Shown: positions 15,885-52,914 of the stretch, one piece after another | Position numbering within the stretch: position 1 is the first letter of the stretch | Layout: each line of letters begins with the position of its first letter | From: Candidatus Poribacteria bacterium | GTDB taxonomy: Bacteria; Poribacteria; WGA-4E; WGA-3G | NCBI GenBank assembly: GCA_965197475.1 | Contig: CBDANF010000003.1 | Location: 2,925,971-2,989,970, forward strand | DNA: 64,000 bases | Reading direction: 5' to 3' | The notes under the pieces: generated by a model | The model's input: the letters and a program-made list of their open reading frames with translations, nothing else | Databases searched by the model: none | Told to the model about the DNA's origin: nothing | Made by a program: the position numbers and the translations under genes

Positions 15885-18800
15885 ATGTCCATTCCTAAAA
15901 TGTCTGTGAATAACCCTGTTTTAGCGAACATGCTGATGATTCTTATTATTATTTTTGGGTTGTATGCATGGATCAACTTACCAAGGGAACTCACCCCGGA
16001 AATCGCCCTACAAAGTGCTACCGTAACGACACTATACCCAGGTGCATCCCCGGAAGAGGTTGAAAAACTGATATCTGCACCAATTGAAGAGGCAATTGAG
16101 GAAAACGTCAACAAAATCAATCTGATGCTTTCCACTTCTTCAGAGGGTAGATCAATTATCTCGGTTGATTTTGATGAAATGAGTGACAGAGATTTCGACA
16201 AAGAGATGGAGAATCTCCGCACTGCTGTTGAAGGTGTAAATGATTTACCGGAGGAGATTTTAGACGATCCCAAGGTAATGGAATTGGATATTAGTTCCGG
16301 ATTTCCGATGTTGACGATTGTTGTCGGAGGAAACATTTCAGAGTCTCAAATGCGGGAAATTGCGGAGAATCTAAAAGACGAGATATTAGAAATTAAAAAC
16401 ATTGCATCTGTGCAAATTGCTGGACTACGTGATAGAGTAATTTGGATTGAGGTTGATCCGGATCGGTTGAAAGCGTATAATCTCCCGATCACTGCTATTA
16501 CAATGGCACTACAAGCAGGGAATTTAAATCTACCCGCAGGAACAATGGAGATTGGTAACACGGAGTTTATGGTGCGAACAATGGGAGAATTTCCTAATCC
16601 TGACTATATCGGTGATACAATCATCAGTGTTCAGCCATCAGGGACACCACTTAGACTTCGAGATGTTGCAACAGTATCTGATGATTATGAGGAAGCACGA
16701 ACACTTTCAAGAATTGAAGGGAAATCCTCTATCAGTCTAAGCGTTCAAAAAAAGAAAGAGGGCAACACTATCTCTTTGGTGGCGAAACTTCGCGATTTAG
16801 TCAAAAAACGCCAAGTTGAACTTCCTGAAGGTGCAGTGTTGACACCTGTGAACGACTATTCCGTGATCTTAAAAGAGAGGTTGGGCATTCTTGAAACAAA
16901 TGCTGTATTCGGACTTATTCTTGTCATATTCATGCTTTTCCTATTTATCGGATGGCGAAATGCCCTCTTTGCAGCACTTGGTATTCCGGTGGCATTTATG
17001 GCAACTTTTTGGTTCATGTCAATAGTGGATTATTCGCTGAGTGGTGTGGCACTGTTTGGTCTCATCTTGGTCGTAGGAATTGTTGTAGACGATGCCATCG
17101 TTGTTATAGAGAACACCTATCGGCATATAGAGGCAGGAGAATCCCCGAAAGTTGCAGCCGTTCGCGGTGCAGAAGAGGTTGGCTGGCCTGTTTTAGCGGC
17201 AAGTTTGACAACGATTGGTGCATTTGGTCCCTTGATGTTTATGTCAGGTGTTTCAGGGCAGTATATGCGGATCGTGCCAATAATGGCAATTATCGTCTTA
17301 GTGGCTTCGCTCTTTGAAGTTTTTGTAATTTTACCGGCACACGTTGCTGAGTGGGGAAAAGCCAAAACACGGACAGGACGCAGTAGACTTGAAAACCTCC
17401 GTACACGATCTCAAGGTGCATTCACCATAAGTATCCTTTTTGCTGGCTTTTTTGCGTGGTTTGCCACGATTTTTGACATTATACGGAACAGATATGTCAG
17501 AATCCTGAAAATAACGATCCGAAAACGGTATATCTTTGTAGGAAGCGTTCTCTTTATCGGAACGATTGCGTGCGTCAGTGCCTTTGTAGTTCTTGACAAG
17601 GAACTTTTTCCCGGTGAAGACTTTCCACAATTTTACGTCAAGGCAGAAATGCCACCGTCCTACGGCATACAGGAAACAACTGATGTAATCGCACAACTTG
17701 AAGATGCAGCCAAAACTTTGCCGGAAGATGAAGTTGCTGCTATTGTTAGCAATATAGGCTTACATACACCTATCTCAGGGCTTCTTAAAGGCATCACCTA
17801 CGGTTCCAATTTTGGAGAACTTATCATTGAACTTGTTCCCAAAGATCAACGGACTCGGAACACTGACCAAATCATCGATTCCTTACGGCAACAGACTGCT
17901 AATATCAGTGGCATGGAAAAAAAACCCAATTTTGTCAAACTGGAAGGGGGTCCACCCCAAGGACCAGATGTTGAGGTAAAGGTCAAGGGGACTCGGTTTG
18001 AACAGTTAGTTGAAATTGCTGATCGACTTAAAGCAACATTAAGCCAAATAGATGGTGTGGAAGACATACGAGACGATTTTCGCGTCGGTAAATCTGAATT
18101 ACGTATCTATTTGAAACCTGAAAAAGCTGCGCAATTTGGAATGTCAACCCGCCAAGTTGCTCAGGCTGTTCGCACTGCTATTGAAGGTGCAAAGGCGACA
18201 ACCTATCGTGAGGCAGATGAAGCAATTGATGTAATCGTCAAATACAGAGAGGATCGTTTACAGACAATAGAAGAACTGAACGACCTATTGATAGCAACAC
18301 CGACTGGAGCGATTATCCCTTTAAAAGATGTTGCTGATATAACTGAGGAGAAAGGGTATGCGGATATCCGCCGCTTTGAAGGAGAACGTGCAATCACTGT
18401 TTATGCAGCGGTTGATTCAACGAAAACCACACCATTTAAAGTTAACCAAATATTAATGAACTCTTTTGCTGATATTGAATCTTTATATCCCGGTTATCGG
18501 CTTGATTTCCGTGGGGTCTTTGACGAAATACGGGAATCTTTTGGAGAGTTATGGAAACTTTTTATCGTTGGAATTCTTGTCATCTATATGATATTGGGTG
18601 CGCAATTCAAATCGTTTACACAACCGATCATAATCCTTTTTGCTGTGCCGTTCGGAATGATAGGCGCGATGGTCGGGTTACTCTTTTCCAATGCAACGCT
18701 TAGTATGGTTGCAATGTTCGGTATCGTCGCACTTGCGGGGATTGTCGTGAATGATTCAATTGTGTTAATTGATTTTATCAACAAGTACAGAGAACGCGGT

Positions 18801-19115
18801 TTTAATAGATGGTATGCGATTCTTAAAGGTGGGAGTGTTCGTCTACGTCCAATTGTCTTAACCTCATTAACGACAATTTTCGGACTTATTCCGATGGCAT
18901 TGGGGCTTGGTGGAAAATCCCCTATCTGGCAGCCGATGGCGAATACTATCATATTTGGTCTTGCCTTTGCAACGATTATGACACTGTTTGTAATGCCTTC
19001 ATTGTATGCAATCACTACTGACCTGCGCGGAGTTTTTCTAAAAGACCCTGAAGCGCGTTTCCGAACTGTAACTGATGAAGAATTATTAGGGGCTGCTGTT
19101 CCTGCGGATGATTAG
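15885..19115 (+). CDS. RND-family efflux transporter permease (AcrB/CzcA superfamily)
   Basis: 1076 aa with 12-TM RND topology and conserved VVDDAIVVIEN and IVVNDSIVLIDF motifs. No adjacent MFP or OMP gene is present in the window. Confidence 0.9.
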   Translation: MSIPKMSVNNPVLANMLMILIIIFGLYAWINLPRELTPEIALQSATVTTLYPGASPEEVEKLISAPIEEAIEENVNKINLMLSTSSEGRSIISVDFDEMSDRDFDKEMENLRTAVEGVNDLPEEILDDPKVMELDISSGFPMLTIVVGGNISESQMREIAENLKDEILEIKNIASVQIAGLRDRVIWIEVDPDRLKAYNLPITAITMALQAGNLNLPAGTMEIGNTEFMVRTMGEFPNPDYIGDTIISVQPSGTPLRLRDVATVSDDYEEARTLSRIEGKSSISLSVQKKKEGNTISLVAKLRDLVKKRQVELPEGAVLTPVNDYSVILKERLGILETNAVFGLILVIFMLFLFIGWRNALFAALGIPVAFMATFWFMSIVDYSLSGVALFGLILVVGIVVDDAIVVIENTYRHIEAGESPKVAAVRGAEEVGWPVLAASLTTIGAFGPLMFMSGVSGQYMRIVPIMAIIVLVASLFEVFVILPAHVAEWGKAKTRTGRSRLENLRTRSQGAFTISILFAGFFAWFATIFDIIRNRYVRILKITIRKRYIFVGSVLFIGTIACVSAFVVLDKELFPGEDFPQFYVKAEMPPSYGIQETTDVIAQLEDAAKTLPEDEVAAIVSNIGLHTPISGLLKGITYGSNFGELIIELVPKDQRTRNTDQIIDSLRQQTANISGMEKKPNFVKLEGGPPQGPDVEVKVKGTRFEQLVEIADRLKATLSQIDGVEDIRDDFRVGKSELRIYLKPEKAAQFGMSTRQVAQAVRTAIEGAKATTYREADEAIDVIVKYREDRLQTIEELNDLLIATPTGAIIPLKDVADITEEKGYADIRRFEGERAITVYAAVDSTKTTPFKVNQILMNSFADIESLYPGYRLDFRGVFDEIRESFGELWKLFIVGILVIYMILGAQFKSFTQPIIILFAVPFGMIGAMVGLLFSNATLSMVAMFGIVALAGIVVNDSIVLIDFINKYRERGFNRWYAILKGGSVRLRPIVLTSLTTIFGLIPMALGLGGKSPIWQPMANTIIFGLAFATIMTLFVMPSLYAITTDLRGVFLKDPEARFRTVTDEELLGAAVPADD

Positions 19116-19343
19116 ACCCAATGCGAATTTTCGTGATTTAAATTCCTCAAAATCTATACTTTTCGCATAAGTAATTCATTAAAGTGCATGCGGTAAAAGA
19201 TGGACGAATTTAGTTTTCAAAAGCGTCTTAGATGTGGTATAATGTGAATGAATTTATTTCAATGTCCGCACGAATTCTTCGCACCACCAAAGATCTACAT
19301 ATTTAATTTTAAAATAAAAAAGTTTAGAAAAAAGGACAACAAC

Positions 19344-19676
19344 ATGGGTAAAATAGCCGATGCAACCTTTCAAGGTAAGATGGACACCTACAACTTTGGG
19401 GTTTATACCACGGACACGGTTTTCATTGACGTTGGAGCCGTTTACATATTCTCAAAACGTGTAGTTGGATCCGATGGAAGGGGTACACATACGTTTCTAT
19501 ACATCGGTCAAACACATTCACTTGAAGACAGAATCCCGTATCACGAACAGTGGCTCTGTGCACAGAGGAATGGTGTAAATTGTATATGCGTTCATCCAGA
19601 CGATGATGCCAGTTCCCGAATAAAAAAAGAAGCAGATCTTCTCGCTACAAACCCCACCCCGTGTAACAGAGAATAG
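19344..19676 (+). CDS. Small GIY-YIG-like nuclease domain protein (putative)
   Basis: AVYIF...LYIGQTHSLEDRIPYH...KKEADLLATNPTPCN fits the GIY / YIG / R / E / N order of GIY-YIG domains, but with a longer GIY-YIG spacer. An extended -10 TGGTATAAT lies at 19233-19241. Confidence 0.45.
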   Translation: MGKIADATFQGKMDTYNFGVYTTDTVFIDVGAVYIFSKRVVGSDGRGTHTFLYIGQTHSLEDRIPYHEQWLCAQRNGVNCICVHPDDDASSRIKKEADLLATNPTPCNRE

Positions 19677-20710
19677 TTCATGCTTAATCATCGGAAATAG
19701 CTCAAGGAAGATTATCAAATGGCGATACTAGAAGGTTTTAGAGTAAGGAACTATGGTGTTCTAAAAGATGTGACATTGGGTCGTCTATGGGACCAAGGGA
19801 AAGTACCGCTCACTCCTATAACTGCAATAATTGGAAAAAATGGAGTCGGTAAGACCACATTATTTGATGCGTTTGGTTTCCTTGCTCATGCTTTTAAGTT
19901 TGATGTCGAGACAGCTTGTGATGATCGCGGAGGTTTAAAAAAATACGTTCGCAAGGAGAGAAAGAGCCAATTGTTTTTGATGTGTACTACCGAGAACATA
20001 AGAATGTTCAACCTATTACATACCAAGTAGCAATTGGAGATGACCAATTTGGTCGTCCTTATGTCCTACAAGAACGTCTCAGGCAAAGGCGAAAGGGACA
20101 GAAATACGGTGAACCGTATACTTTTTTAAGACTTGATAACGGTAGTGGGGTAGCGTGGAAAGGCAACCAAGAAGGCTATCAGAAAACTCCTTTTGAATCC
20201 ATAAAATCAATAATTATAAGTACTTCAAGTAGCAAAAAAAAAGAAAAAGTTAAAAAGATAGATATAAAAAAAGGTGACCTTATTGACGATAACGAGAACT
20301 CAAGTCAAGCCTCAAGTAACTTAGACCTCTTAGAATACATAGTCAATAAGGAAGCCGACGAGACTGAGATTATTAAATTGGAGGATCCGCGAAAACTTGG
20401 CATTGCCACTCTCGGTGCTTTGAAGCAGCATCCGCGAATTTCTGCTTTTCGTAGGTTCATTGAAGGATGGTTTCTTAGTTACTTCACTCCTGATGCAGCA
20501 CGTAACTTACAATTTGCCGGCCCGCAAGAACACCTCAATATACAAGGCGATAACCTCAGAAACGTTGCGCAATTTATGGAGCGCGAATACCCTCAACGTT
20601 TCCAAGTAATTCTAAAAAAAAATCGCAGATAAAATTCCGGGCATAGAAAAAATTGACACCAAGAAAACAGAAGACAATAGGTTACTACTCAGGTTCAACG
20701 AAAAAAGGTT

Positions 20711-21696
20711 GGCTCATGTAAAAAGTAAGTGCTATTTTTTCAAAGTTATGTTAGCGTGTTACCTATGGACTTTCCAATACAATCTCTCCTGGATGAAGAA
20801 AAAACTCAAGCGTGGGTGTTGGATCATTTCCACCTTCAAGGGCTGTGTTGCCCAAAATGCCAAGCGAGCGTGGCGGAGGCACGCAAGTTCCGTCCGACTG
20901 AAACAAGTGGTCTACAAGTGTATCGCTGCAAACACTGTGAGAGCATCTACAACCTCTATACCGGGACGGTCTTTGCTGGCACGCAGTTTCGTCCCTCACA
21001 GGTCGTTCTGCTTTTGCGCGGTGTCTGTCAAGGTGTTTCAAGTGCACAACTCGGGTGTGAACTGGGTCTAAGTCGTCAAACCGTTCTTTCTATAAGACGT
21101 AAACTCCAAACTTCGGCAGAGCAGATACAACCCGAAGCTGCTTTACCTGATGCTGAAGTCGAAACAGATGAGATGTTTCAAAACGCCGGTGAAAAAGGCG
21201 ATAAGCACGTTGATGCTTCGGATCCGCCGCGTCGGCGTGGCAATAAACGCAGGGAACATGGGACTTATGACAATGATCGTCCGCCTATTGTTGGGACGAA
21301 AGGTCGCGAAAGCGGTCTCCTGAGATTACGTGTTGTGCGGCACACCGATTCTGCGACGCTTTCAACACACGTTCATCAGTGGACGTTGCCGACTTCAACG
21401 GTGTATACGGATGGTTGGCGTGGCTATAACCGTATTCAGCGCGCCCGTGAGATTGTTCTCCATAAGGATGGCGAGTGGGCAAGAGACGCAGACGGTGATG
21501 GTCTTTACGAGATCCATACAAGGACGATTGAAGGTGCCTGGACGACGCTGCGAAACTTCCTTCGTCCCTTTCGTGGCGTTCATAAAAAGTTCCTCGCCGG
21601 TTACGTCGCAATCTGTGAGTTCGTCATGAATCTAAAAGCTGTCAGTGTTGATTTTATAGCAAAACTCGTCAAAAGCACTTACTCTTGACATGAGCG
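20711..21696 (+). mobile_element. IS1595-family insertion sequence (986 bp) with 8-bp TSD AAAAGGTT
   Basis: Terminal inverted repeats GGCTCATGTAAAAAGTAAGTGCT and AGCACTTACTCTTGACATGAGCG match at 19 of 23 positions. Direct repeats AAAAGGTT lie at 20703-20710 and 21697-21704. By eye it is more GC-rich than the flanks. Confidence 0.85.
20765..21688 (+). CDS. IS1595-family transposase (zinc-ribbon + DDE)
   Basis: N-terminal CCPKC...CKHC zinc ribbon, then ETDEMF, YTDGWRGY and HTRTIEGAW motifs typical of IS1595 DDE transposases. Confidence 0.85.
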   Translation: MDFPIQSLLDEEKTQAWVLDHFHLQGLCCPKCQASVAEARKFRPTETSGLQVYRCKHCESIYNLYTGTVFAGTQFRPSQVVLLLRGVCQGVSSAQLGCELGLSRQTVLSIRRKLQTSAEQIQPEAALPDAEVETDEMFQNAGEKGDKHVDASDPPRRRGNKRREHGTYDNDRPPIVGTKGRESGLLRLRVVRHTDSATLSTHVHQWTLPTSTVYTDGWRGYNRIQRAREIVLHKDGEWARDADGDGLYEIHTRTIEGAWTTLRNFLRPFRGVHKKFLAGYVAICEFVMNLKAVSVDFIAKLVKSTYS

Positions 21697-23868: not shown

Positions 23869-23946
23869 ACTATCTGTATTGCATTAGTGTTAAGTCCGTG
23901 CTTCAGAATTGGTAAAACCTCCTATATAGGAAAGGAGTCTCATTTG

Positions 23947-26900
23947 ATGAAAAAACATATTTTTCGTTTTGCCATATTTACGTTAATCTGTCTATTCTTT
24001 TGTATGCTATCTGTTGAGTTTGTTTATGCTGGGATTGAAGCTTCTATTATACTTGATATAGACCTTAACGAAAATGGTCTCATGCGTGATATTGCGGCGA
24101 CAGCTACGCGTTTTTATGTCTTGTTTGCAGGCAGGCAACCGGAAATAGGAGGAACGTCCAATAGTGGATCGTCTTATATACGGAAAGTCTACGTTTTTGA
24201 CCATGAAGGAACACGTAAACCAGACGAGGAGTTTGAAATAGATACAGAACTGACACCATACAGCATTGCAGTAACAAATAAATTTATCTATATTTCATAC
24301 TGGGATAGTTCCGGTATTGATGCCTATGCGTTTGATGGTACGCGTTTACATGATGAGGGCTTACGTTATGCCTCTGCAGGTCAAAAAAGTAGTATAGCAG
24401 CAACAGAGACGCACATATATGTTTCAGATGTCTCTTATTTAGATGAAGTTGATATTTACAAGTTTAAAGATACACAAGGCGATCTAAACGCAAGGAACGT
24501 TTCCTGGGAGAAAGAATTTAAACTTACCACAAATGAGAGTCTTAGAGCTTTCATCGCCGCAACAGATACCCGTGTCTATATCCAAAATCCTAACGATTCT
24601 ACAATCTATGTCTACGATACCCGGGACGGTGGTAGACGCGCACGTGAAGATTTCGTACACTGCTTATGGACTGGGCTAAGGAAAGAATCTATTTACGTCC
24701 CCTCACGCTATTTATCAGGCATTACAACAACACCATTAGGTGGAAAATTGTATATGTTAATTTCCCGATCAAGGGATGATGGAATAGAGGGACGCCAACT
24801 TAAGGTCTATAGGTATTCTATTCCGGAAGAAAATGCTGCACGTCCTGAGGTCTTTTTGCCTGCAAAACCGCCTCGCAGAGCAAGTTATTATTTCTATTTG
24901 CCGCCTTCTGGTTCCGGGATAGCTGCGACTGATACAACCGTCTATATAGGAGCTGATGGTTCACGTTATTTTGGTCGTGCTGCTACAATACATGCCGAAA
25001 CCTATTCCGATGGGGTACCGGGCAGTTTATTCGCAGATGCCGGCAAACTGAGAGGTAATATATCCGTAACCTATCCTCATCTAGGTTCTTCCGGTATGAC
25101 AGTTGACTATAACAATATCTATCTGCTTATTCGTCGGGCATCTGATGTACTTACTCAAGAACACAACTATGCCGTTCGACACTGTTTACTTAATTCAGAT
25201 GGAACTATTCATGGTGGTAAGACGACATTAAGAGATCTTCAACTACCACTTGCAATGGAAAATTTTAAGAATGGAATAGGGCTAGCTATTGACTCAGAAG
25301 GAATTCTATACGTGATGGCTGCTGGTGAAAATTACAAAGGACCTCCGCTAATCTATCGATATAAACCTTCATTGGATTCTCCACAACATAGTCAAGCTTT
25401 GCCTGGTAACCCTATCTTGTTACATCCTGACCATAAGGCTCCATGCGGTATAACGATTGTAAAAAACCGCGCTTATGTTCTGGATAGGGCGTTTATAACT
25501 GATGAAGGCACCCCTCGATTGTACGCAAAGGTTTTTGTCTACGATTTGGATGCCCACGATGTATTTGAGTACTTACCTGAGGAGAGTTTTTTAGTAAATG
25601 CCCGAATAGGAAATCAGACAATCATACCGTATGATTCAGGTATTGCTGTAAATGGAGACACATTTTTCATCTCAATGAGAGCAGAGTGGCCTTCCAATTA
25701 TAAACATGTTCTTGTCTACGGTCCTCTTGCAGCACCGAGTTGGGGGCCCATACGCGCAGATACAATTCAGCGTAGGCAACCCTATGGTGGGGACATTAGA
25801 AGAATGTCAATAGTGGCTACAAATGGTAGTGACTACTACAAATACCAGGCAATCGAAGGTATTCCATGGATTCTTTCACTGGATTTTGACTTTGTATTTG
25901 GCAATCCTGATCCTTCCATTACCTTTAAAACAGGTTATAAAAAACCAGAATGGTTGACCTTAAAGGATGGTGTTCTATCAGGTACCCCTTCATCAGCAGG
26001 TAAGTTAACAATTGAACTCACTGCCACCAACGAACAAGGAAGTACGGATGAAAGTATCACCTTAAACGTTGGTCCGGGGGTTGTGGCACCGAGTTGGCAT
26101 GATTTCTCAGTGCCAGAGATAAGGATACACGATGCTTGGTCATTAACCTTAACTGACTTGGTTACTGGTAATCCGACACCGGAGATATATTTTACACAAG
26201 GATACACACCACCTGACTGGTTAAAGCTAAGAGAAGGCGTGTTATCAGGGACACCGCCAAAGGCGGGTACATATTCTATCCAAGTTACCGCTGCCAGTGC
26301 TCTCAGACGCCCTGGCTATGTAAAGTGGGCGGATATTGTGATATATTTGGTTGTCAAAGGTCCAACATCTCCTAATTGGGCACTTGATTCCATGAACGAT
26401 ACTGCACAAGGTATCGCCGCTACGGACAACCGGATCTATGTGACAGACCTTATTGATGACAAAATCTATGTTTACGGACACGATGGAGAGCGATATGTTG
26501 CTCAGGATATAGACCTCAAGACACTCACAGAAAACCCAATCGGTATCACTGCTACGGTGACACATATCTATATTGTTGATAACAGCGAGGATATCGTCTC
26601 AATTTTAGATGTTACAGAAACAGGTTCTGTCGGCAATTTCAAGCTTGACCCCGATAATAGAGGTCCAACCGGTATTGCAGCGACAGCAAGACGACTTTAT
26701 GTTGTTGACCACGAGGATGATAAGGTCTATACCTACGCACACGACGGTACACGGCACCCTACTGAGGATGTTAACCTGCACAAACATAGTGAACCCACCG
26801 GTATTACAGCGACAGCGACACGACTTTATGTTGTTGACGGTGATGATGACAAAATCTATCCCTATGAATATGATGGCAAAATGAAGAACAGTGAAATTGT

Positions 26901-28737
26901 TGAACTTGTTACAGAAAACAGAAGTCCAACTGGTGTTACTGCAACACCAGCGCATCTGTTTGTCGCAGATATTATTGACCAGAAAGTCTATTCATATCCG
27001 ATCCCTGGTGTTACCGAGGTTGTTGTAACTGTAGGCGCGCCGAGTTGGAAGCCCGTGTCAATTCCCGAAGCAGTGAAAGGTTCCCATTGGACGCTCTCCT
27101 TAGCAGATTTCGTAAAAGGGGACCCAACGCCACAGATCTACTTTACAGACGGTTATACGTCATCTAACTGGCTTACGTTGCAAAATGGTGTGCTTTCAGG
27201 CACCCCTACGATGGCTAACACTGAATATATCAAAGTTACCGCAACAAATAGTAAGGGAAGCGCAGACATAACAGTACCGCTTTCTGTGTCGCATTCAGAA
27301 TATACATCCTGGGACCTCAACCCCGAAGAAATTTATGTAAATACCATTGCCAGCACAGAAGAGTTTGTCTATGTGTTTTATGGGACCCAGAATAATATAC
27401 CTCACATAAGTGCTTACACTCATGATGGAATTCGCCGTCCGGATAAGGATATAAAACTTGGAACGGAACATAGAAAAGACTCACACAGCATTAACACCCA
27501 CATCACCGCCTCTGAAACACATCTTTTTATGGTGGAGACATATAACGATTCCGATGAATCGAATCCAACTGGTGGAAGAAAAGTCTATGTGTTTGACATT
27601 ACAGGAACAGGCACTAAACGGCATTTTTTTCTAAGTAGGGAGGTAGGTATGTACACAGCGGAGATTGCTGCCACTACAACGCGCTTTTATGCAGTCAATT
27701 GGTCTGAAAGGAAATTCCATGTTTACGGACACGATGGAACACCTTACCCAAATGAGGATTTTACACTCAAGCCGCACGACACTGAAGGTACATTTTTTTT
27801 GGACGTAGCGACAACTGAAACGCGTATCTACGTTTTGTTAGCAAAAGTGAATGGTTATGTTCGTGGTAAAGTTTTTGTATATGGGCATGATGGCACACCT
27901 TATCCTGACGAAAACTTCAACGTCGGTGAAGTAAAAACTGTAGATATTACAGCAACATCAACGCATCTGATGGCATATTCCGGTCCGTATCTTAGAGGCA
28001 TAAATACCGGCTCTATTTTTTACTTCCCACTTCCTGAGGCGGAAGGAAACACCGAAACAGCTGTTCATATCCAAGATACAACGCCCGCTTGGGATGTCAA
28101 TCAGGATGGAAAGGTTGATATCCAAGACCTAATTAAGGTCGCACAGTATATTGATGAAACAGAACTTTCTAATCCACAAGCAGACGTAAATGGAGATGGA
28201 ACAATTGATGTTCAAGACCTACTCATTGTTTCACAACATTTAGGAGAATCAGCTGAGGCAGCATCACCTATAAAAACAACTGCTTTGCGATTTCCTGCCC
28301 TTGTAAAAAACGTTGCAGATGGTGATGTCACAACGGAACTAATTCAAACATGGATAGACCTTGCGCGGATTTCGGACGATGGTTCGCCTGTTTTTCAGCG
28401 CGGTATTGCAAACTTAGAACGTCTATTAGCTGAGATGCTACCAGATAAGACAGAACTCCTCGCAAACTATCCGAATCCTTTTAACCCAGAAACGTGGATA
28501 CCTTACCATCTTGCTAAGGAAGCTGAGGTGCAAATTACTATTTACGATATAAACGGTGCTGTCGTGAGACAATTAGACCTGGGATTGAAACTCGCCGATA
28601 ATTATACGGACCGTTCCCGAGCTGCTTTTTGGGATGGACGCAATGCTGATGGTGAGAAGGTTGCAAGCGGAATTTACTTCTATCAACTCCGTGCAGGCGG
28701 CTATGATCACACCCGCAGAATGCTTATTGTTAAATAG
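23947..28737 (+). CDS. Giant secreted beta-propeller / Ig-like / dockerin-like protein with T9SS-like C-terminal domain
   Basis: RBS AAAGGAG and signal peptide MKKHIFRFAIFTLICLFFCML. Many GIAAT-x-RIYV-D..DDKIYVY.HDG blades and three Ig-like GY..P(D/E)WL.L..GVLSGTP segments. Two DVN(Q/G)DG..D.QDL repeats. C-terminal LLANYPNPFNPETWIPY...GIYFYQL. Confidence 0.85.
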   Translation: MKKHIFRFAIFTLICLFFCMLSVEFVYAGIEASIILDIDLNENGLMRDIAATATRFYVLFAGRQPEIGGTSNSGSSYIRKVYVFDHEGTRKPDEEFEIDTELTPYSIAVTNKFIYISYWDSSGIDAYAFDGTRLHDEGLRYASAGQKSSIAATETHIYVSDVSYLDEVDIYKFKDTQGDLNARNVSWEKEFKLTTNESLRAFIAATDTRVYIQNPNDSTIYVYDTRDGGRRAREDFVHCLWTGLRKESIYVPSRYLSGITTTPLGGKLYMLISRSRDDGIEGRQLKVYRYSIPEENAARPEVFLPAKPPRRASYYFYLPPSGSGIAATDTTVYIGADGSRYFGRAATIHAETYSDGVPGSLFADAGKLRGNISVTYPHLGSSGMTVDYNNIYLLIRRASDVLTQEHNYAVRHCLLNSDGTIHGGKTTLRDLQLPLAMENFKNGIGLAIDSEGILYVMAAGENYKGPPLIYRYKPSLDSPQHSQALPGNPILLHPDHKAPCGITIVKNRAYVLDRAFITDEGTPRLYAKVFVYDLDAHDVFEYLPEESFLVNARIGNQTIIPYDSGIAVNGDTFFISMRAEWPSNYKHVLVYGPLAAPSWGPIRADTIQRRQPYGGDIRRMSIVATNGSDYYKYQAIEGIPWILSLDFDFVFGNPDPSITFKTGYKKPEWLTLKDGVLSGTPSSAGKLTIELTATNEQGSTDESITLNVGPGVVAPSWHDFSVPEIRIHDAWSLTLTDLVTGNPTPEIYFTQGYTPPDWLKLREGVLSGTPPKAGTYSIQVTAASALRRPGYVKWADIVIYLVVKGPTSPNWALDSMNDTAQGIAATDNRIYVTDLIDDKIYVYGHDGERYVAQDIDLKTLTENPIGITATVTHIYIVDNSEDIVSILDVTETGSVGNFKLDPDNRGPTGIAATARRLYVVDHEDDKVYTYAHDGTRHPTEDVNLHKHSEPTGITATATRLYVVDGDDDKIYPYEYDGKMKNSEIVELVTENRSPTGVTATPAHLFVADIIDQKVYSYPIPGVTEVVVTVGAPSWKPVSIPEAVKGSHWTLSLADFVKGDPTPQIYFTDGYTSSNWLTLQNGVLSGTPTMANTEYIKVTATNSKGSADITVPLSVSHSEYTSWDLNPEEIYVNTIASTEEFVYVFYGTQNNIPHISAYTHDGIRRPDKDIKLGTEHRKDSHSINTHITASETHLFMVETYNDSDESNPTGGRKVYVFDITGTGTKRHFFLSREVGMYTAEIAATTTRFYAVNWSERKFHVYGHDGTPYPNEDFTLKPHDTEGTFFLDVATTETRIYVLLAKVNGYVRGKVFVYGHDGTPYPDENFNVGEVKTVDITATSTHLMAYSGPYLRGINTGSIFYFPLPEAEGNTETAVHIQDTTPAWDVNQDGKVDIQDLIKVAQYIDETELSNPQADVNGDGTIDVQDLLIVSQHLGESAEAASPIKTTALRFPALVKNVADGDVTTELIQTWIDLARISDDGSPVFQRGIANLERLLAEMLPDKTELLANYPNPFNPETWIPYHLAKEAEVQITIYDINGAVVRQLDLGLKLADNYTDRSRAAFWDGRNADGEKVASGIYFYQLRAGGYDHTRRMLIVK

Positions 28738-29852: not shown

Positions 29853-30665
29853 AGTTCCTCCTTTTTTTTCTCCACGGGCTCTGGGTGAAGGAGTTGGGTC
29901 ATGCGATCGGTGTGTTGATATTCCTCGGACAGCGAGAGATACTCGCGGATCAGCCGGTCAGAGAGATGAGTGATGAGTGATGAGCCGTATCTGTGCGTTA
30001 GGAAAACCTTGATGATGGAGCGTGGCGACTTGTATTAAGTCCCTCAAGTAGCGGTAGACGGCCCGTTCGGAGTGGTTCGTCTTTTGCTCAATCTCGGTGA
30101 AGGTGTATGCTTTGAAGGACAACTCAAGAATCTGCGTCTTATGAGACAGTCCCGGGCCCATGTCGTGTTTCGCCCCGCGCGTCATCACGAAATAGCCGGA
30201 CTGCTTCAACGCTCGGATGTCGCGTTTGACGGTGGCAGGACTGGTAGTTAATAACACTGCCAAATCCTCATAACTCAGCAAGGCATCTTGGTCATAAGCT
30301 TCTTGGGTCAATCGGAGGATCCGATGCCGTCTGAGACCTGCGAGCCCATAAGTCGCTAAAACTTCAAGGTCGGCTTCAACATCGTTGAGTTTGAGTCGAC
30401 AGGAAACTTTTTTCGCTAAAGCGATGTGTTTGCCTGCGGGTTCCTCAGCGGCGACTGCCTCATAGCAGATTTGCCCTGAGGTAAGTTGCACATCGGCGTG
30501 CTGTTCAAAGTAGGTGGAAATCTGTTTATAGTAGGCTTCAGCAACGAGAGGCATTAGATTAAAGTCTGCTGAAATCTTCTGAATAATAGCGGCTCTGGCA
30601 TTCTTGGATTCCAGTCGATTGATACCGTAGGCGGTATCCTTCTTACGGTCCATATTGACCTCCAT
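29853..30665 (-). pseudogene. DUF1670-like HTH protein (paralogue A) with a frameshift from a 7-nt tandem duplication
   Basis: The ORF 29958-30665 stops inside GATGAGT GATGAGT GATGAG (29965-29984). Removing one 7-nt unit restores ...IRLITHLSDRLIREYLSLSEEYQ...EEL. That aligns with ISQITRLSKRVISQYLDL of paralogue B and ends in TGATG coupling with the next gene. Confidence 0.65.
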
Positions 30666-30912: not shown

Positions 30913-31242
30913 CTAACGAATTGCAGTTGGGACAATTTGAGCGATAAATTTCAAACTGTTTTCCAACTTTTCGATTGCCTCTGATTCGCGAGCTGTCCCA
31001 CTCTTGAGTTCAATCGAAACTCCCACAAGATTATTTTCAGTTGGAGAAATAAAAAAGAGAAGTCGGTCACACCTTTTTTCAGTTTTTTGGCGCAAATCAA
31101 ACTCATGTTCAAGATTTACAATCACCCGTTCGGATGGTATGTCATCCATGTCAACATTGCATCCTTCTCCACTGCATGCATCAACTAAACTACCTGTATT
31201 AAAACGTGCACGGAGTTCACCAAGAATTCTACTCTGATTCAC
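30913..31242 (-). CDS. Small (109 aa) PD-(D/E)xK-like protein, putative effector partner of the upstream ATPase
   Basis: CDRLLFF...(19 aa)...VSIELKSG gives a D...ExK pattern. Its start overlaps the ATPase stop by 14 nt. Confidence 0.35.
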   Translation of the reverse strand: MNQSRILGELRARFNTGSLVDACSGEGCNVDMDDIPSERVIVNLEHEFDLRQKTEKRCDRLLFFISPTENNLVGVSIELKSGTARESEAIEKLENSLKFIAQIVPTAIR

Positions 31243-32639
31243 GCTTAGTGTTGCCTTTCATTTCTTCAAGTCGATTTTGTAGACGTGCGGAACGGTTGTA
31301 AAGGTCCTCAGCGACATCCAAATATTCCATCGGTTCAACGCCGTCAATACGATTGTAAGGTATTTCTTCCACCTTTCCATTTTTCTGAAAATGCCAAATT
31401 CCAACTTGTTCTGTCTGAAGAGAAGTCGGCAGGTCGCTAACTTCCTGCCCTGCGTTCTCAAGTTCTCCTGCACGTATCAGATTCCCTATTTCCTGAAGTA
31501 ACCAATCGCTATGTGTTGTTATTATTATTTTCACGCCTGCCCGAACTAAACGTGCAAGAATGACTGCCATGCCTGCTTGGGCACCCGGGTGTAGGTGTGC
31601 CTCCGGTTCTTCAATGATCAGCGTATCACCTGGCTGTACAAGACTTCGGAGATATAGGACTAAGGGCGCAAGTTCAGATACCATTGAGGAAGATTGGCTG
31701 AGACGAAATTCTTCATTAGTGCCTTGTGGTAAATAACGAAAGTCCGGATACCCACTCGCTGAAGGTTTTAAGCGTATCTTTCCAGCAAGTACTTCAGTTT
31801 CCAAAGTTTCAGAATGTTGTTTCATCTCAGCATTCGGTTTTTTTGGTTCTTCGTAAAGGATAATTTTTTCCATAAAGTCTGCTATCACTCCTGACATAGT
31901 GGGAACCTCAGGAAAACGTTCGAAACCTACTCGGGTTGATCGCTTTACAAGCGAAGTTGCTATCACTCGATGACTTTGCATGATGCCGCTCCGGGCAGCA
32001 GGAAGGTAGTAACGGTTTCCTCCATTTTTGATGTTTCCCTTAAAACCATGTATTTTTTTTACTCCGCTTGTCAGTTCAACTCCCCAATCTCCGCTAAAAG
32101 TGAAATTAAAATTACCTTCACCTTTCCAGTCTGTGGAGATTGCCAATCCCTCAGGAATAAGAATCATAGTCTCGTTGAATGAACTATTAAGGATAACATC
32201 TGATTCAGATGTATTTAACTTGATACTCCAACCGTCTTGCTGTTTTTCATCAACCATCAGTGAAACAGTCATTTCATTTTTTTCTCCCGTTGTCAATCGT
32301 CTTAATTCCAAAATTGCATCAAAATCATAACAGTTTTTGAGTTCAGACTGTAGTTTGTCCCCAAAAACCTCTGCATCATCAATAATTGTCTTTAAGAGAT
32401 CTCGTAGTTCTGTTGGAAAATCTAACAATCTAAAGGCCCCTGTCACTGGTGTTTAGTTTTTTGAGCACATCCTGAACTTTTTGCTTTGCTGATGGACTCG
32501 CGTTTGTCAAAACAAAGTTCTGTAAAGCATGTAAAATACCTACAATCCCTTGGAGCCCAGATGGAAATAGAAGTTGGGGTTCTGTCATATCCGGAAATAC
32601 ACCGTACAAGGCGTACACCAGCGTAGAAAAATAAGTTTT

Positions 32640-33778
32640 CGGAATAAGTCGTTTTGGACTTGACAAAAGTTGGAAAAGTGCGCTAAACCCTTGTAAATAA
32701 AGGGTTTTCATAGTATAATATCAGTAAGAAAATAGGGGGTATCAACCCCCTATTTGAAACTCAAAAAAGCGAGTTGCTTTTCTGGTTCACACTTATCTGA
32801 TATTGTATCAGAAACTATCAGAAAAATGCAACTCCAAAAAACAGGAGTGTTTTCTGATGGATTTAATCAAGGTGATGAAGACGTTCTCAACGCAAGAGGA
32901 TTGCATCGAATATCTGGAGCGGCTCCGATGGAAAGAATCGCCAGAATGCCCGCATTGTCCAAGTCTAAACGTCCGAAGGCGGAACGAACACGAGGTTGGG
33001 CGTGTCGGACGCTGGAACTGCCACGATTGCCGTGCTACATTCAAGGTGACACACGGCACAATATTTCACGGCACGAAGATACCGCTCCAAAAGCGGTTTC
33101 TCGCTATCGCTCTCATGGCAAACGCAAAGAAAAGTTTGTCCTCCCATCAACTTGCGCGCGATTTAGGGATGAAACAGAAAGCTGCTTGGTGTCTAATGAT
33201 GGCTATACGCACAGAGATGGGAAAGGATAATGTCCTACTACAAGGGGTCATTGAAGCAGATGAAACCTATATCGGTGGTAAGCGTCGCAAAGACTATGAC
33301 CGGGAGGATGGTGAACCCCGTAAACGCGGACGCGGCACCGCTAAAGATGCCGTGCTGGGCGCAGTCGCACGTGGTGGACACGTCATCGCACAACTCGTAT
33401 CCAACGCCACTGGTGAGACGATCTCCGACTTCATCAACAGATTCGTCAATACCGAAGATTCTGAACTCATTACCGATCAGTATAGAAGCTACAACGAAAT
33501 CGGTAAGGAAATGAAACATGAGACACTTAACCGTAGTGAGAAATGGGAGGCTGGCGACATCCATACCAATACGATGGAAGGCTTTTGGTCTTTCGTCAAG
33601 AGGGCATGGTATGGACAACAACACCACTACTCAACAAGATACACGCCCCTGTATCTCGCAGAGGCAGGCTATAAATATAACTACCGAGAAACCAACATCT
33701 TTGAGAAGTTTCTCACCGAAAGTATAACGTGAGAAATCTGAAAAATAAAAACTTCCAAGTCCAAAACGACTTATTGCG
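32640..33778 (+). mobile_element. IS1595-family insertion sequence (1139 bp) with 8-bp TSD TAAGTTTT
   Basis: Terminal inverted repeats CGGAATAAGTCGTTTTGGACTTG and CAAGTCCAAAACGACTTATTGCG match at 22 of 23 positions. Direct repeats lie at 32632-32639 and 33779-33786. Confidence 0.9.
32857..33732 (+). CDS. IS1595-family transposase
   Basis: MDLIKVMKTFSTQEDCIEYLERLRWKESPECPHC zinc ribbon, then EADETYIGG, TDQYRSY and HTNTMEGFWS motifs. It is a close paralogue of the transposase at 61438-62319. Confidence 0.9.
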   Translation: MDLIKVMKTFSTQEDCIEYLERLRWKESPECPHCPSLNVRRRNEHEVGRVGRWNCHDCRATFKVTHGTIFHGTKIPLQKRFLAIALMANAKKSLSSHQLARDLGMKQKAAWCLMMAIRTEMGKDNVLLQGVIEADETYIGGKRRKDYDREDGEPRKRGRGTAKDAVLGAVARGGHVIAQLVSNATGETISDFINRFVNTEDSELITDQYRSYNEIGKEMKHETLNRSEKWEAGDIHTNTMEGFWSFVKRAWYGQQHHYSTRYTPLYLAEAGYKYNYRETNIFEKFLTESIT

Positions 33779-33949
33779 TAAGTTTTTCCTGTATTACTGG
33801 GACCAACAAATACCGTCAACGGGCGCAAATCGATATTGGCTTCCGCAATAGGTCCAAAATTCTCAACTGCAATTTCAACCTTCGGCTGCTCTTGTGTGTC
33901 TTTGACTTCGCTCATGGTCATCTCCTCAAAAATGATTTGTTTATGTAGG

Positions 33950-35942: not shown

Positions 35943-36105
35943 CGGGTGTGTAAAGTTTTTGTCAATTTCTGAATCGCGGATTATGCGGATTTTGGGAACT
36001 TGGTGTCAAATCAATGGCAAATGCGCGCTTGATATTGGAAATCGGGGTTGAAAACCCCTCTTACAAGAGAAAGGGAATGGTTAATGCCAAAAACTTTACA
36101 CACCC
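35943..36105. mobile_element. MITE-like element (~163 bp) with 18-bp terminal inverted repeats and 8-bp TSD ATTTCGTA
   Basis: GGGTGTGTAAAGTTTTTG at 35944-35961 and CAAAAACTTTACACACCC at 36088-36105. ATTTCGTA at 35935-35942 and 36106-36113. There is an internal GGGGTT-gaa-AACCCC hairpin. Confidence 0.6.
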
Positions 36106-36207
36106 ATTTCGTAATACATTATTGCACAATCTCCAAACTTTTGCTATAATAAAAGACACATTCCAATAGGCAATCATTCCCATTAAGAGACCCTGAAGGA
36201 GAGATAG

Positions 36208-37368
36208 ATGGACGCAAAGAGAGGTTCCGCAGATCGTTCCCTACCTATCTGTACACTTGGCGCAGACGAACATGGTAAAACAACGTTGACAGCAGCGATT
36301 GCAAAGGTCGTTGCACGAATCGGATCAATCCGTTCCAAAGCGAACAACCAATTTGAACAGCAAGCACCAGTTCACCACCCAATCCGCGAAGGTGTTGGCA
36401 TTACCTATCGGGCAATTGATTACGAAACCAGCGGAAAATTCTATTTGCAGATTGACTGTGAAGCACATCTGGATATTATCAAAATGTTAGTCAGTCGTTC
36501 ATTTGCAATCCAGGGTGCCATTTGGATTGTGGATGCTGATGAAGGGGTTACACAGGATTCCGAGGCACATCTCCGCATAGCGAACCGTATAAATTTGCCA
36601 ACGGTAATTTCATTTCTCAATACACGAAATATCGCAAAAGATGATGAACTGGTAGATATTTGCCAACAAGAGATGCGCGATTTACTCACCGAATATGGAT
36701 GGGAAGAACAGAACAGTCCTATAATTGTCGGAGATGCCAATAGGGCGTTAAACTACAAAGGCGATCGGATCGGTTCTGATCAGTGGAAACCGATTGTTGA
36801 CCTGATATTTGCGATGAATCGGTGTATGCCTAAACCTGTCAATTCTGAAAACTTACCGCCCATTATGCCAATCTATGAGATTGTAGAGGAGCTGAAGGAA
36901 CGCGTCACTGTGCGGGGTGAGATTGTTCAAGGACATCTTGCTGTCGGGCAGGCGGTCGATATTGTCGGTAAGGGCGATCGGATAAAGACAAAATGTCTTA
37001 GCATTAAAAAGAATGAAGTGAGTGTAGAGTCTGAACCCGATTGGTTGTCTATTGGGCAAGTTTTGTGTACACCTAAGACCATAAAGGCGCATTCAGATTT
37101 TACCGCTCTTATCTATCTGCTTACACAGGAAGAGAGCGGCACACATATCCCACTTATCGAAAATGATAAACCTGAAATCCATTTGTGGGGTATTGATATG
37201 CCAGCGAGTCTGCAGCTTCCACCAGAATTATCCATTGTTACCCCTGGAGATAATGCTCATGTATCGTTTTCTCTCGAATTGCCGCTTGCAATGGAAGTTG
37301 GCACAACGTTTGAGGTAAAGAAAATGGGATCACGGATCGGACTCGGTGTTGTGACTGATGTGGTGTAA
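36208..37368 (+). CDS. EF-Tu-like paralogue with partly degenerate GTPase motifs
   Basis: Collinear with EF-Tu domains I-III (GADEHGKTTLTAAI; VTPGDNAHVSFSLELPLAMEVGTTFEVKKMGSRIGLGVVTDVV). The P-loop is kept. DCPGH has become DCEAH, NKCD has become NTRN, and SAL has become NRAL. Confidence 0.8.
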   Translation: MDAKRGSADRSLPICTLGADEHGKTTLTAAIAKVVARIGSIRSKANNQFEQQAPVHHPIREGVGITYRAIDYETSGKFYLQIDCEAHLDIIKMLVSRSFAIQGAIWIVDADEGVTQDSEAHLRIANRINLPTVISFLNTRNIAKDDELVDICQQEMRDLLTEYGWEEQNSPIIVGDANRALNYKGDRIGSDQWKPIVDLIFAMNRCMPKPVNSENLPPIMPIYEIVEELKERVTVRGEIVQGHLAVGQAVDIVGKGDRIKTKCLSIKKNEVSVESEPDWLSIGQVLCTPKTIKAHSDFTALIYLLTQEESGTHIPLIENDKPEIHLWGIDMPASLQLPPELSIVTPGDNAHVSFSLELPLAMEVGTTFEVKKMGSRIGLGVVTDVV

Positions 37369-52895: not shown

Positions 52896-52914
52896 GGGTG
52901 TGTAAAGTTTTTGT
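52896..52914. repeat. Solo copy of the MITE terminal repeat
   Basis: GGGTGTGTAAAGTTTTTGT is identical to 35944-35962. No partner repeat was found nearby. An IS5-family element starts ~100 bp away. Confidence 0.45.

Follow-up and report, generated by a model that had tools for sequence, protein, structure and literature searches.

We analysed a 64,000-nucleotide stretch of the Candidatus Poribacteria bacterium assembly GCA_965197475.1 (contig CBDANF010000003.1, positions 2,925,971 to 2,989,970 of the forward strand; hereafter the window), which carries a gene for a diverged relative of elongation factor Tu (EF-Tu). We suggest, with a probability of roughly 0.7, that this gene represents a vertically inherited, Poribacteria-specific family of EF-Tu descendants that turned into pseudo-GTPases and act by binding. 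The gene is EF-Tu-derived, restricted to one sponge-associated phylum, present in single copy and under strong purifying selection. Alignment clearly shows its product to be devoid of the residues by which EF-Tu switches, selects guanine and carries tRNA, and judged by these residues its role is almost certainly something other than tRNA delivery. Two marks of a pseudo-GTPase, a G-domain fold with lost switch and catalytic motifs and purifying selection, are found here. The gene is located as follows:

36208..37368, + strand: protein-coding gene for a 386-amino-acid EF-Tu-derived protein of clade A of the Poribacteria family; open reading frame intact from ATG to stop, EF-Tu alignment full length.

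Descent from EF-Tu can be followed along the whole chain. An earlier note on this DNA had described the protein as collinear with EF-Tu across domains I–III, and a phmmer search of the PDB bears this out, aligning residues 13–385 with EF-Tu residues 14–392 (E-value 1.7e-63, about 30% identity). In the window protein Pfam recognizes GTP_EFTU (1.6e-19) and GTP_EFTU_D3 (3.8e-14), and domain 2 goes undetected even at E≤1. Against TIGR00485, the NCBIfam EF-Tu equivalog, the protein scores 225.5 bits and thereby falls short of the cutoff of 522.4 bits, while its scores for SelB, EF-1alpha, EF-G and other NCBIfam families lie far below the EF-Tu score. A structure model, as proposed in the earlier note, was computed with AlphaFold 2 from a 60-sequence alignment and returned an EF-Tu fold (predicted local distance difference test [pLDDT] 91, predicted template-modelling score [pTM] 0.88) in which all three domains are present and domain II forms a compact, shortened barrel. 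The best 50 Foldseek matches of this model in the PDB are all EF-Tu structures (TMq 0.80–0.89), nearly all of them GDP-bound or otherwise open (1EFC, 1TUI, 1D8T, 6MIJ; TM-score 0.86–0.89 to the GDP form), and closed GTP-form entries are absent among these top 50. The predicted structure agrees, if weakly, with a protein held in an off-like shape. The G+C content of the gene, 44.8%, is in keeping with its surroundings (42.9% for the window).

We assigned the motif registers with HMMER and MAFFT, which were concordant, and use E. coli EF-Tu numbering where canonical EF-Tu residues are named; site-by-site comparisons involved 62 family members and 106 canonical EF-Tu sequences. The motifs and segments of the window protein are:

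36259..36285, + strand: P-loop (G1), GADEHGKTT (canonical GHVDHGKTT), residues 18–26, kept; G18, H22, G23, K24, T25 and T26 invariant in 33/33 clade A sequences.
36388..36408, + strand: switch-I remnant, EGVGITY, in which Gly64 is the equivalent of E. coli Thr61; same register in HMMER and MAFFT.
36454..36468, + strand: degenerate G3/switch II, DCEAH (canonical DCPGH), residues 83–87; placed by HMMER and MAFFT.
36619..36630, + strand: degenerate G4, NTRN (canonical NKxD), residues 138–141; placed by HMMER and MAFFT.
36730..36741, + strand: degenerate G5, GDAN (canonical GSAL), residues 175–178; placed by HMMER and MAFFT.
36754..36795, + strand: family-specific segment YKGDRIGSDQWKPI after G5, exceeding its EF-Tu counterpart by 5–6 residues; recognizable in clade C as well.
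37000..37044, + strand: domain II segment spanning a deletion of about 19 residues (E. coli ~259–280); placed by HMMER and MAFFT, Pfam domain 2 undetected.
37141..37353, + strand: remodelled, strongly conserved domain III face (THIPL..ND.P.I.LW; GT.FE.KKM...IG.GVV); Pfam D3 match.

The earlier note had thus read three motifs correctly, with G1 retained, G3 changed to DCEAH and G4 to NTRN, and its expectation that guanine recognition and switch II are probably altered is upheld by the changes in G3, G4 and G5. Its reading of G5 as SAL turned into NRAL was right about the loss of the serine and about two residues off in register, the correct reading being GDAN. The note had allowed that its motifs might simply be misaligned; this is ruled out, as two aligners and 62 family members agree on the loss of G3–G5. 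By the same alignments, further losses that the note had not listed affect T61, P-loop Asp21 and about 19 residues of domain II.

Site by site, the contrast with canonical EF-Tu is sharp. T61, G83, K136, D138, S173, H66, F261 and N273 are invariant in 106/106 canonical sequences and absent in the window protein. The family comprises three clades, A (which includes the window protein), B and C (see below), and the switch residues are altered in all of them: the position of T61, always Thr in the canonical set, has G/S, Y and P in clades A, B and C, respectively, P82-G83 is lost in each clade with Gly83 replaced in every family member, and P-loop Asp21 is changed to Glu in the window protein and to Gly in most family members. 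Positions of base recognition and catalysis have drifted within clade A, where the K136 position is T/P/I, the D138 position N/G/D/K (87th percentile of site variability), the L175 equivalent falls into the 98th percentile and the His84 equivalent into the 91st (H in 21, N in 4, Q in 3 and Y in 3 of 33 sequences). At the S173 position, every sequence of clades A and B has Asp; clade C has Ser. G18, G23, K24 and T25, on the other hand, are invariant throughout clades A and B. Since the P-loop is invariant and the base-contact and catalytic positions are variable in clade A, constraint appears to persist on phosphate binding and to have been lifted from base recognition and catalysis.

The tRNA-binding surface has fared similarly. 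In EF-Tu-tRNA ternary-complex structures, H66, E215, D216, F218, T228, E259, F261, R262, N273, R288 and R318 are tRNA contacts, and, among these, E259, F261, R262 and N273 of domain II belong to the pocket for the aminoacyl group and A76. In clade A, H66, E215, D216, F218, T228, E259, F261, N273, R288 and R318 are substituted or deleted. All three clades lack H66, F261, R262, N273 and R318, whereas E215, D216, F218, T228, E259 and R288 persist in clade C and have disappeared from A and B. The region of E. coli residues 259–285 is an acidic low-complexity insert in clades B and C and is deleted in clade A. Other surfaces have become fixed in a family-specific form: Y183, G185 and W193 of the YKG...W(K/Q)PI segment are at least 90% conserved across all three clades, unlike in canonical EF-Tu, and so are L316, N319, D320, W327, T366, K371 and K372 of domain III, which differ from EF-Tu family-wide. 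Overall, 33% of positions are invariant across clade A.

The family is confined to a single phylum. A search of 5.8 billion proteins yielded more than 120 related 90%-identity clusters at 70–90% identity, and all named ones belong to Candidatus Poribacteria, where NCBI calls the proteins "GTP-binding protein" or "hypothetical protein". Scanning one genome per GTDB species, we found 49 loci, all in Poribacteria and one per assembly, with an intact open reading frame in 49/49. Clade A has 33 members of 386 residues, including the window protein, which is 69–91% identical to the other 32; clade B has 17 members of 394–405 residues at about 50% identity. In an exhaustive representative search, A and B merge into one 50% cluster, followed by a single intermediate, P0122 (258 bits), below which ordinary EF-Tu starts at no more than 186 bits. 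A search from P0122 led to clade C, with about 14 clusters and again only Poribacteria among the named members. Like A and B, clade C gives no Pfam domain-2 match, in contrast to every canonical EF-Tu in the same list. The earlier note had suggested a phylogenetic placement, and in a neighbour-joining tree the three clades together are monophyletic in 200/200 bootstraps, within which A and B group in 200/200; Poribacteria tuf sequences are not in this tree.

Comparison of the clades brings out a gradient. The mean distance to canonical EF-Tu rises from clade C (1.07) over B (1.38) to A (1.56), and TIGR00485 scores fall in the same order (331, 248 and 225 bits; cutoff 522), as does the share retained out of 218 positions with at least 95% conservation among canonical EF-Tu sequences (48%, 41% and 34%). 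G4 reads NKID in C, NKAE in B and NT[RDGQ][NGDK] in A; His84 is kept in C and B and variable in A (H/N/Q/Y and others); and clade C retains NKID and GSA though T61 and G83 are gone. Read across present-day sequences, loss of the G motifs is ordered and stepwise, from C to B to A. Of the 218 positions, 54 are retained in all three clades. They comprise the P-loop, D80, K89, N135, residues of structural importance (Gly, Pro and hydrophobic ones) and four residues of helix D, namely D142, E144, L145 and E152, which are invariant in A, B and C.

Selection maintains the gene. Across 374 informative pairs, the ratio of nonsynonymous to synonymous substitution rates (dN/dS) has a median of 0.096 and a range of 0.056–0.19. 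The intergenic region of 347 bp in front of the gene contains:

36123..36150, + strand: promoter-like site TGCACA-16-TATAAT with a TG extension, from a promoter scan.
36195..36201, + strand: Shine-Dalgarno sequence GAAGGAG, spaced 6 nt from the ATG; conservation extends to L001 and L002.
35944..36105, no strand assigned: 162-bp element resembling a miniature inverted-repeat transposable element (MITE), with 21-nt inverted termini (GGGTGTGTAAAGTTTTTGTCA).

About 110 bp upstream of the ATG are conserved in the nearest relatives, and in the closest two (L001, L002) this includes the TTGCTATAAT block and the sequence downstream of it. Strong purifying selection together with promoter-like and Shine-Dalgarno sites of its own indicates that the gene gives rise to an expressed, useful protein. 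The earlier note had placed the gene behind a MITE-containing leader. The element with inverted termini is indeed there, but as it lies upstream of the promoter-like site, it is not in the transcribed leader. It is absent from the same site in L001 and L002, a related sequence occupies that site in L003, and a further copy of its terminus is found at 52896–52913 (three matches in the window versus 0.06 expected); the MITE-like element is a local insertion and no part of the gene's function. Rfam yielded no regulatory RNA match at E≤1 in the 347-bp spacer.

How might such a protein work? The loss of T61, G83, Asp21, the guanine-contacting residues and the tRNA pocket would preclude a GTP-on/GDP-off cycle and canonical aminoacyl-tRNA delivery. 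We propose that the family retained the three-domain architecture and the phosphate-binding P-loop of EF-Tu; both gamma-phosphate sensors (switch-I Thr61, switch-II Gly83) are lost, along with P-loop Asp21. In the window's clade the guanine-specificity residues K136, D138 and S173 are lost as well and the catalytic His84 is free of constraint. Gone, too, are the domain-II pocket and the majority of the other contacts to the aminoacyl end, the 5' phosphate and the T-stem of tRNA. What remains would be a binding module that does not switch, fixed in an open shape like that of the GDP form, whose P-loop may still hold nucleotide or phosphate without cycling. A conserved partner may be bound via retained EF-Tu surfaces (P-loop/helix A, helix D) or via newly fixed ones (the YKG...W.PI segment, the remodelled domain III face). 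Going one step further, and only tentatively, since we put the two ideas together at somewhat below even odds, the family may have lost the switch sensors first, then guanine recognition and then the catalytic His on its way to a nucleotide-independent role, for example as a permanent "EF-Tu-GDP mimic" that engages a partner in ribosome hibernation, EF-Ts or the bL12 stalk. On EF-Tu, EF-Ts and the C-terminal domain of bL12 dock at helix D. Because its acidic residues are retained, our leading guess, itself a doubtful one, is a translation-linked partner, such as EF-Ts, the bL12 stalk or a factor that joins EF-Tu-GDP on the ribosome.

Several observations weigh against parts of this proposal. 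The invariant P-loop and D80 could mean that nucleotide binding, and even hydrolysis, persists. In clades A and B, a Thr or Ser two residues past the T61 position could substitute for T61 if the loop register differs. Evidence for an open shape is weak because the canonical EF-Tu rows in the AlphaFold 2 alignment may bias the model and account for its open conformation. Retention in helix D is 0.5–0.7 compared with 0.34–0.48 overall, a difference that is not significant (n = 10 positions) and may be structural, and H118, a residue of the EF-Ts pocket, is unconserved across clades. Finally, a comparison of gene neighbourhoods revealed no neighbour common to all three clades, so that no partner is indicated.

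As an alternative to a non-cycling binding protein, the invariant P-loop, D80 and K89 could belong to a working, nucleotide-driven carrier, i.e., an EF-Tu respecified for another nucleotide, such as ATP or xanthosine triphosphate (XTP), whose cargo would be an unusual tRNA or a tRNA-like ligand, in the style of SelB or nematode mitochondrial EF-Tu2. Such a shift has some plausibility at the G4 motif, as NKAE of clade B resembles the NxxE motif of ATP-using YchF/OLA1, and as D138N in E. coli EF-Tu shifts specificity to XTP; the domain III face, remodelled yet highly conserved and with basic K371 and K372 kept, could serve a new ligand. However, both gamma-phosphate sensors are gone in every clade, so that no nucleotide state would be readable, and few sites of clade A vary as much as His84 and the base-contact positions, the opposite of what a new specificity predicts. 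Moreover, the aminoacyl/A76 pocket is deleted, and known specialised carriers retain G1–G5 (Atkinson 2015, PMC4342817). We consider a respecified carrier unlikely.

Still less probable, in our estimation, is that EF-Tu-targeting toxins or phage proteins meet the protein as a decoy or sensor. The earlier note had offered this idea as speculation, naming EF-Tu as a target of phage-defence and toxin systems; Lit, Doc, CdiA-CT and Tse6 act on EF-Tu, and complexes of this kind (4ZV4, 7VMC) are among the PDB matches. The idea found no support. No PADLOC-DB 2.0 family matched the window protein, a clade B member or P0122 for clade C at E≤0.01, a search of viral contigs recovered no copies of the gene, and no defence gene consistently adjoins the family loci. 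A PD-T4-4_A-like AAA ATPase gene does occur about 4 kb upstream in some clade A genomes, but it is found in only 11/50 loci, two unrelated genes lie in between, and in the window an insertion sequence (IS) interrupts it. With a single copy, phylum-wide distribution and synteny within clades, the gene resembles a housekeeping gene rather than part of a defence island. In addition, sites at which known toxins act on EF-Tu are altered: T382, the Doc site, is changed to R/K/C, and G59-I60-T61, which includes the Lit site G59-I60, is changed as well.

The ATPase gene of the window deserves a description of its own. It lies at 31229–33921 (- strand), is AAA_15/AbiEii-like and has PD-T4-4_A as its best PADLOC match (2.5e-27). 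An IS1595-family transposase gene (DDE_Tnp_IS1595 plus zinc ribbon; 32803–33732, + strand) sits inside it, and residues 1–46 of an intact orthologue map to 33915–33778 and residues 161–425 to 32029–31232. As the transposase splits the two halves, the defence-like gene is disrupted in this genome. It is followed by a small PDC-M47B-like open reading frame (30913–31242) and a DUF1670/HTH gene (29958–30665).

Lost catalytic motifs and a low EF-Tu model score would also be expected of a decaying, functionless relic of a tuf duplication. This we regard as highly improbable: the 49 genomic copies are without exception intact and of full length, dN/dS lies between 0.056 and 0.19 in every informative pair, a third (33%) of clade A positions are invariant, promoter-like and Shine-Dalgarno sites are conserved, and the family is older than the split of three deep clades. 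That the protein is the organism's only EF-Tu, doing its normal job despite its sequence, is very improbable on indirect grounds, as it scores 225 bits against a 522-bit equivalog cutoff, misses residues invariant in 106/106 canonical EF-Tu, has lost the tRNA pocket, has a catalytic His that varies among close relatives, lies outside a ribosomal or str context and is called "GTP-binding protein" or "hypothetical" by the NCBI pipeline; no canonical tuf turned up in the 64-kb window or in about 1 Mb of related loci, an outcome that chance alone would give and that carries little weight. In detail, a tblastn search that took E. coli EF-Tu as query and covered the complete window and the 49 loci matched only the EF-Tu-derived gene itself, and the named canonical EF-Tu matches in the protein searches came from Chloroflexota, Atribacteria, Gammaproteobacteria and others, with none from Poribacteria.

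The genomic surroundings are those of a stand-alone gene, as the earlier note had stated, and the two flanking genes agree with those named there. By NCBIfam, the 5' neighbour is rfaE domain II (TIGR02199, 195.6 bits, above the cutoff of 181.5) and the 3' neighbour hisA (TIGR00007, 264 bits, above 229), both encoded on the other strand. Transcribed as a monocistronic unit, the gene belongs neither to a str (rpsL-rpsG-fusA-tuf) nor to a tRNA-tuf-secE-nusG context, and the contexts of clades B and C are likewise non-ribosomal. The opposite-strand flanks of clade A (rfaE domain II, hisA and an ATP-binding cassette transporter) were considered as an operon and rejected as synteny of close relatives. 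In clade B an M20 peptidase gene follows about 40 bp downstream, and then isochorismatase-like, phosphoesterase, CYTH/CHAD and ROK kinase genes; in clade C an AP_endonuc_2 TIM-barrel gene lies downstream and, in one lineage, an M20 peptidase gene too. The M20 peptidase, downstream on the same strand in both clades, was rejected as a shared partner, since the clade B and C proteins are only 30% identical over 125 residues and are not orthologues.

Other features of these loci were noted in passing. The AP_endonuc_2 (xylose-isomerase-like) genes of clade C (L050, 11241–12029; L053, 11331–12218) lie 47–89 bp downstream on the same strand in two lineages that are about 55% identical; they do not adjoin the gene in A or B and could encode a clade-specific operon partner. 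At the L053 locus, on a Poribacteria-like metagenome contig, uvrB (17217–20939; 1240 residues) is interrupted by an intein that includes a LAGLIDADG homing-endonuclease domain. Immediately before the EF-Tu-like gene of this contig comes an MmeI-like methyltransferase/TaqI_C pair, and the contig ends with a Cas6 gene. Upstream of the clade B gene, up to five tandem paralogous PD40 (WD40-like beta-propeller) proteins of about 340 residues are encoded (L044, 4411–8909; L046, 3968–9428; - strand in both), and beyond these arrays a protein of about 700 residues whose N-terminus looks sigma-70-like by eye only. Elsewhere in the window, large open reading frames encode 2410 residues (5772–13004, - strand), 1616 residues (23887–28737, + strand) and 1076 residues (15885–19115, + strand).

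Set beside known systems, the protein is closest to EF-Tu itself (TIGR00485; 1EFC, 1TUI, 6GFU), with which it shares full-length collinearity and, in the predicted structure, three domains and a TM-score of 0.86–0.89 to the GDP form, and whose P-loop, D80, K89, N135 and acidic and hydrophobic helix D residues the Poribacteria family keeps. Unlike EF-Tu, it is without T61, D21, P82, G83, K136, D138, S173 and most aminoacyl-tRNA contacts, is 19 residues shorter in domain II, scores less than half the family cutoff and is encoded monocistronically outside the str and tuf operons. SelB (TIGR00475) has an EF-Tu-like G domain and is the second-best NCBIfam match, at 42.6 bits against a cutoff of 242.25; it keeps its G motifs, and the window protein ends with domain III at residue 386 and lacks C-terminal winged-helix domains. 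The nearest functional analogy may be to pseudo-GTPases in general and to the eukaryotic/archaeal EF1A-family adaptors Ski7, Hbs1 and eRF3, which have given up tRNA delivery and in which a translation-GTPase scaffold is reused as a binding module; Ski7 has been reported to bind but not to hydrolyse GTP. These adaptors are non-bacterial, stem from other branches of the superfamily and have extra N-terminal regions and known partners, and we claim no membership among them.

EF-Tu ranks among the best-understood and most conserved of all proteins. Among bacteria, the only distinct EF-Tu-like subfamily listed by Atkinson (2015; PMC4342817) is actinomycete EF-Tu3 (actEF-Tu), a working, antibiotic-resistant elongation factor with its G motifs kept. 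EF-Tu3 is a lineage-restricted, divergent tuf duplicate that escaped gene conversion, as the Poribacteria family probably is too; unlike that family, the Nocardiopsis protein P0136 has DCPGH and TKVD, while the Poribacteria proteins form a separate clade (200/200) with motifs lost. A Myxococcus protein (WP_267698135, P0143) has the same length, architecture and "GTP-binding protein" label and degenerate G3 and G4 motifs (DPPSH, NKWR; G1 is GHQGHGKTT), and P0135 has DYPSH. These paralogues fall outside the Poribacteria clade, with G5 kept and a domain II that is ordinary by eye, and look like independent cases of the same trend rather than members of the family. A further divergent bacterial EF-Tu paralogue, P0145, reads DFPGH and SKTD. 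In the literature on EF-Tu paralogues, pseudo-GTPases and Poribacteria EF-Tu, we found no description of the Poribacteria family; Gupta (2012) included an "EF-Tu" of Poribacteria WGA-A3 in a concatenated tree, giving no detail.

Since it fails five of the tested features that define EF-Tu, the protein should not be annotated as EF-Tu. The labels in use vary between "elongation factor Tu", "GTP-binding protein" and "hypothetical", with a risk of confusion with tuf in marker-gene and phylogenetic pipelines. Decay of tuf duplicates, as in Myxococcus and other lineages, may be commoner than the literature suggests, and clades C, B and A offer a graded natural series on the motifs for nucleotide binding, switching and partner binding. 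If the more far-reaching reading, with ordered loss and a nucleotide-independent role, is right, no bacterial pseudo-GTPase descended from EF-Tu would have been described before this one, and the clades would record how a molecular switch is taken apart. Strong selection across the phylum, despite the apparent loss of the switch, the base-recognition site and the tRNA pocket, would imply that in Poribacteria the EF-Tu scaffold has taken on a non-canonical job.

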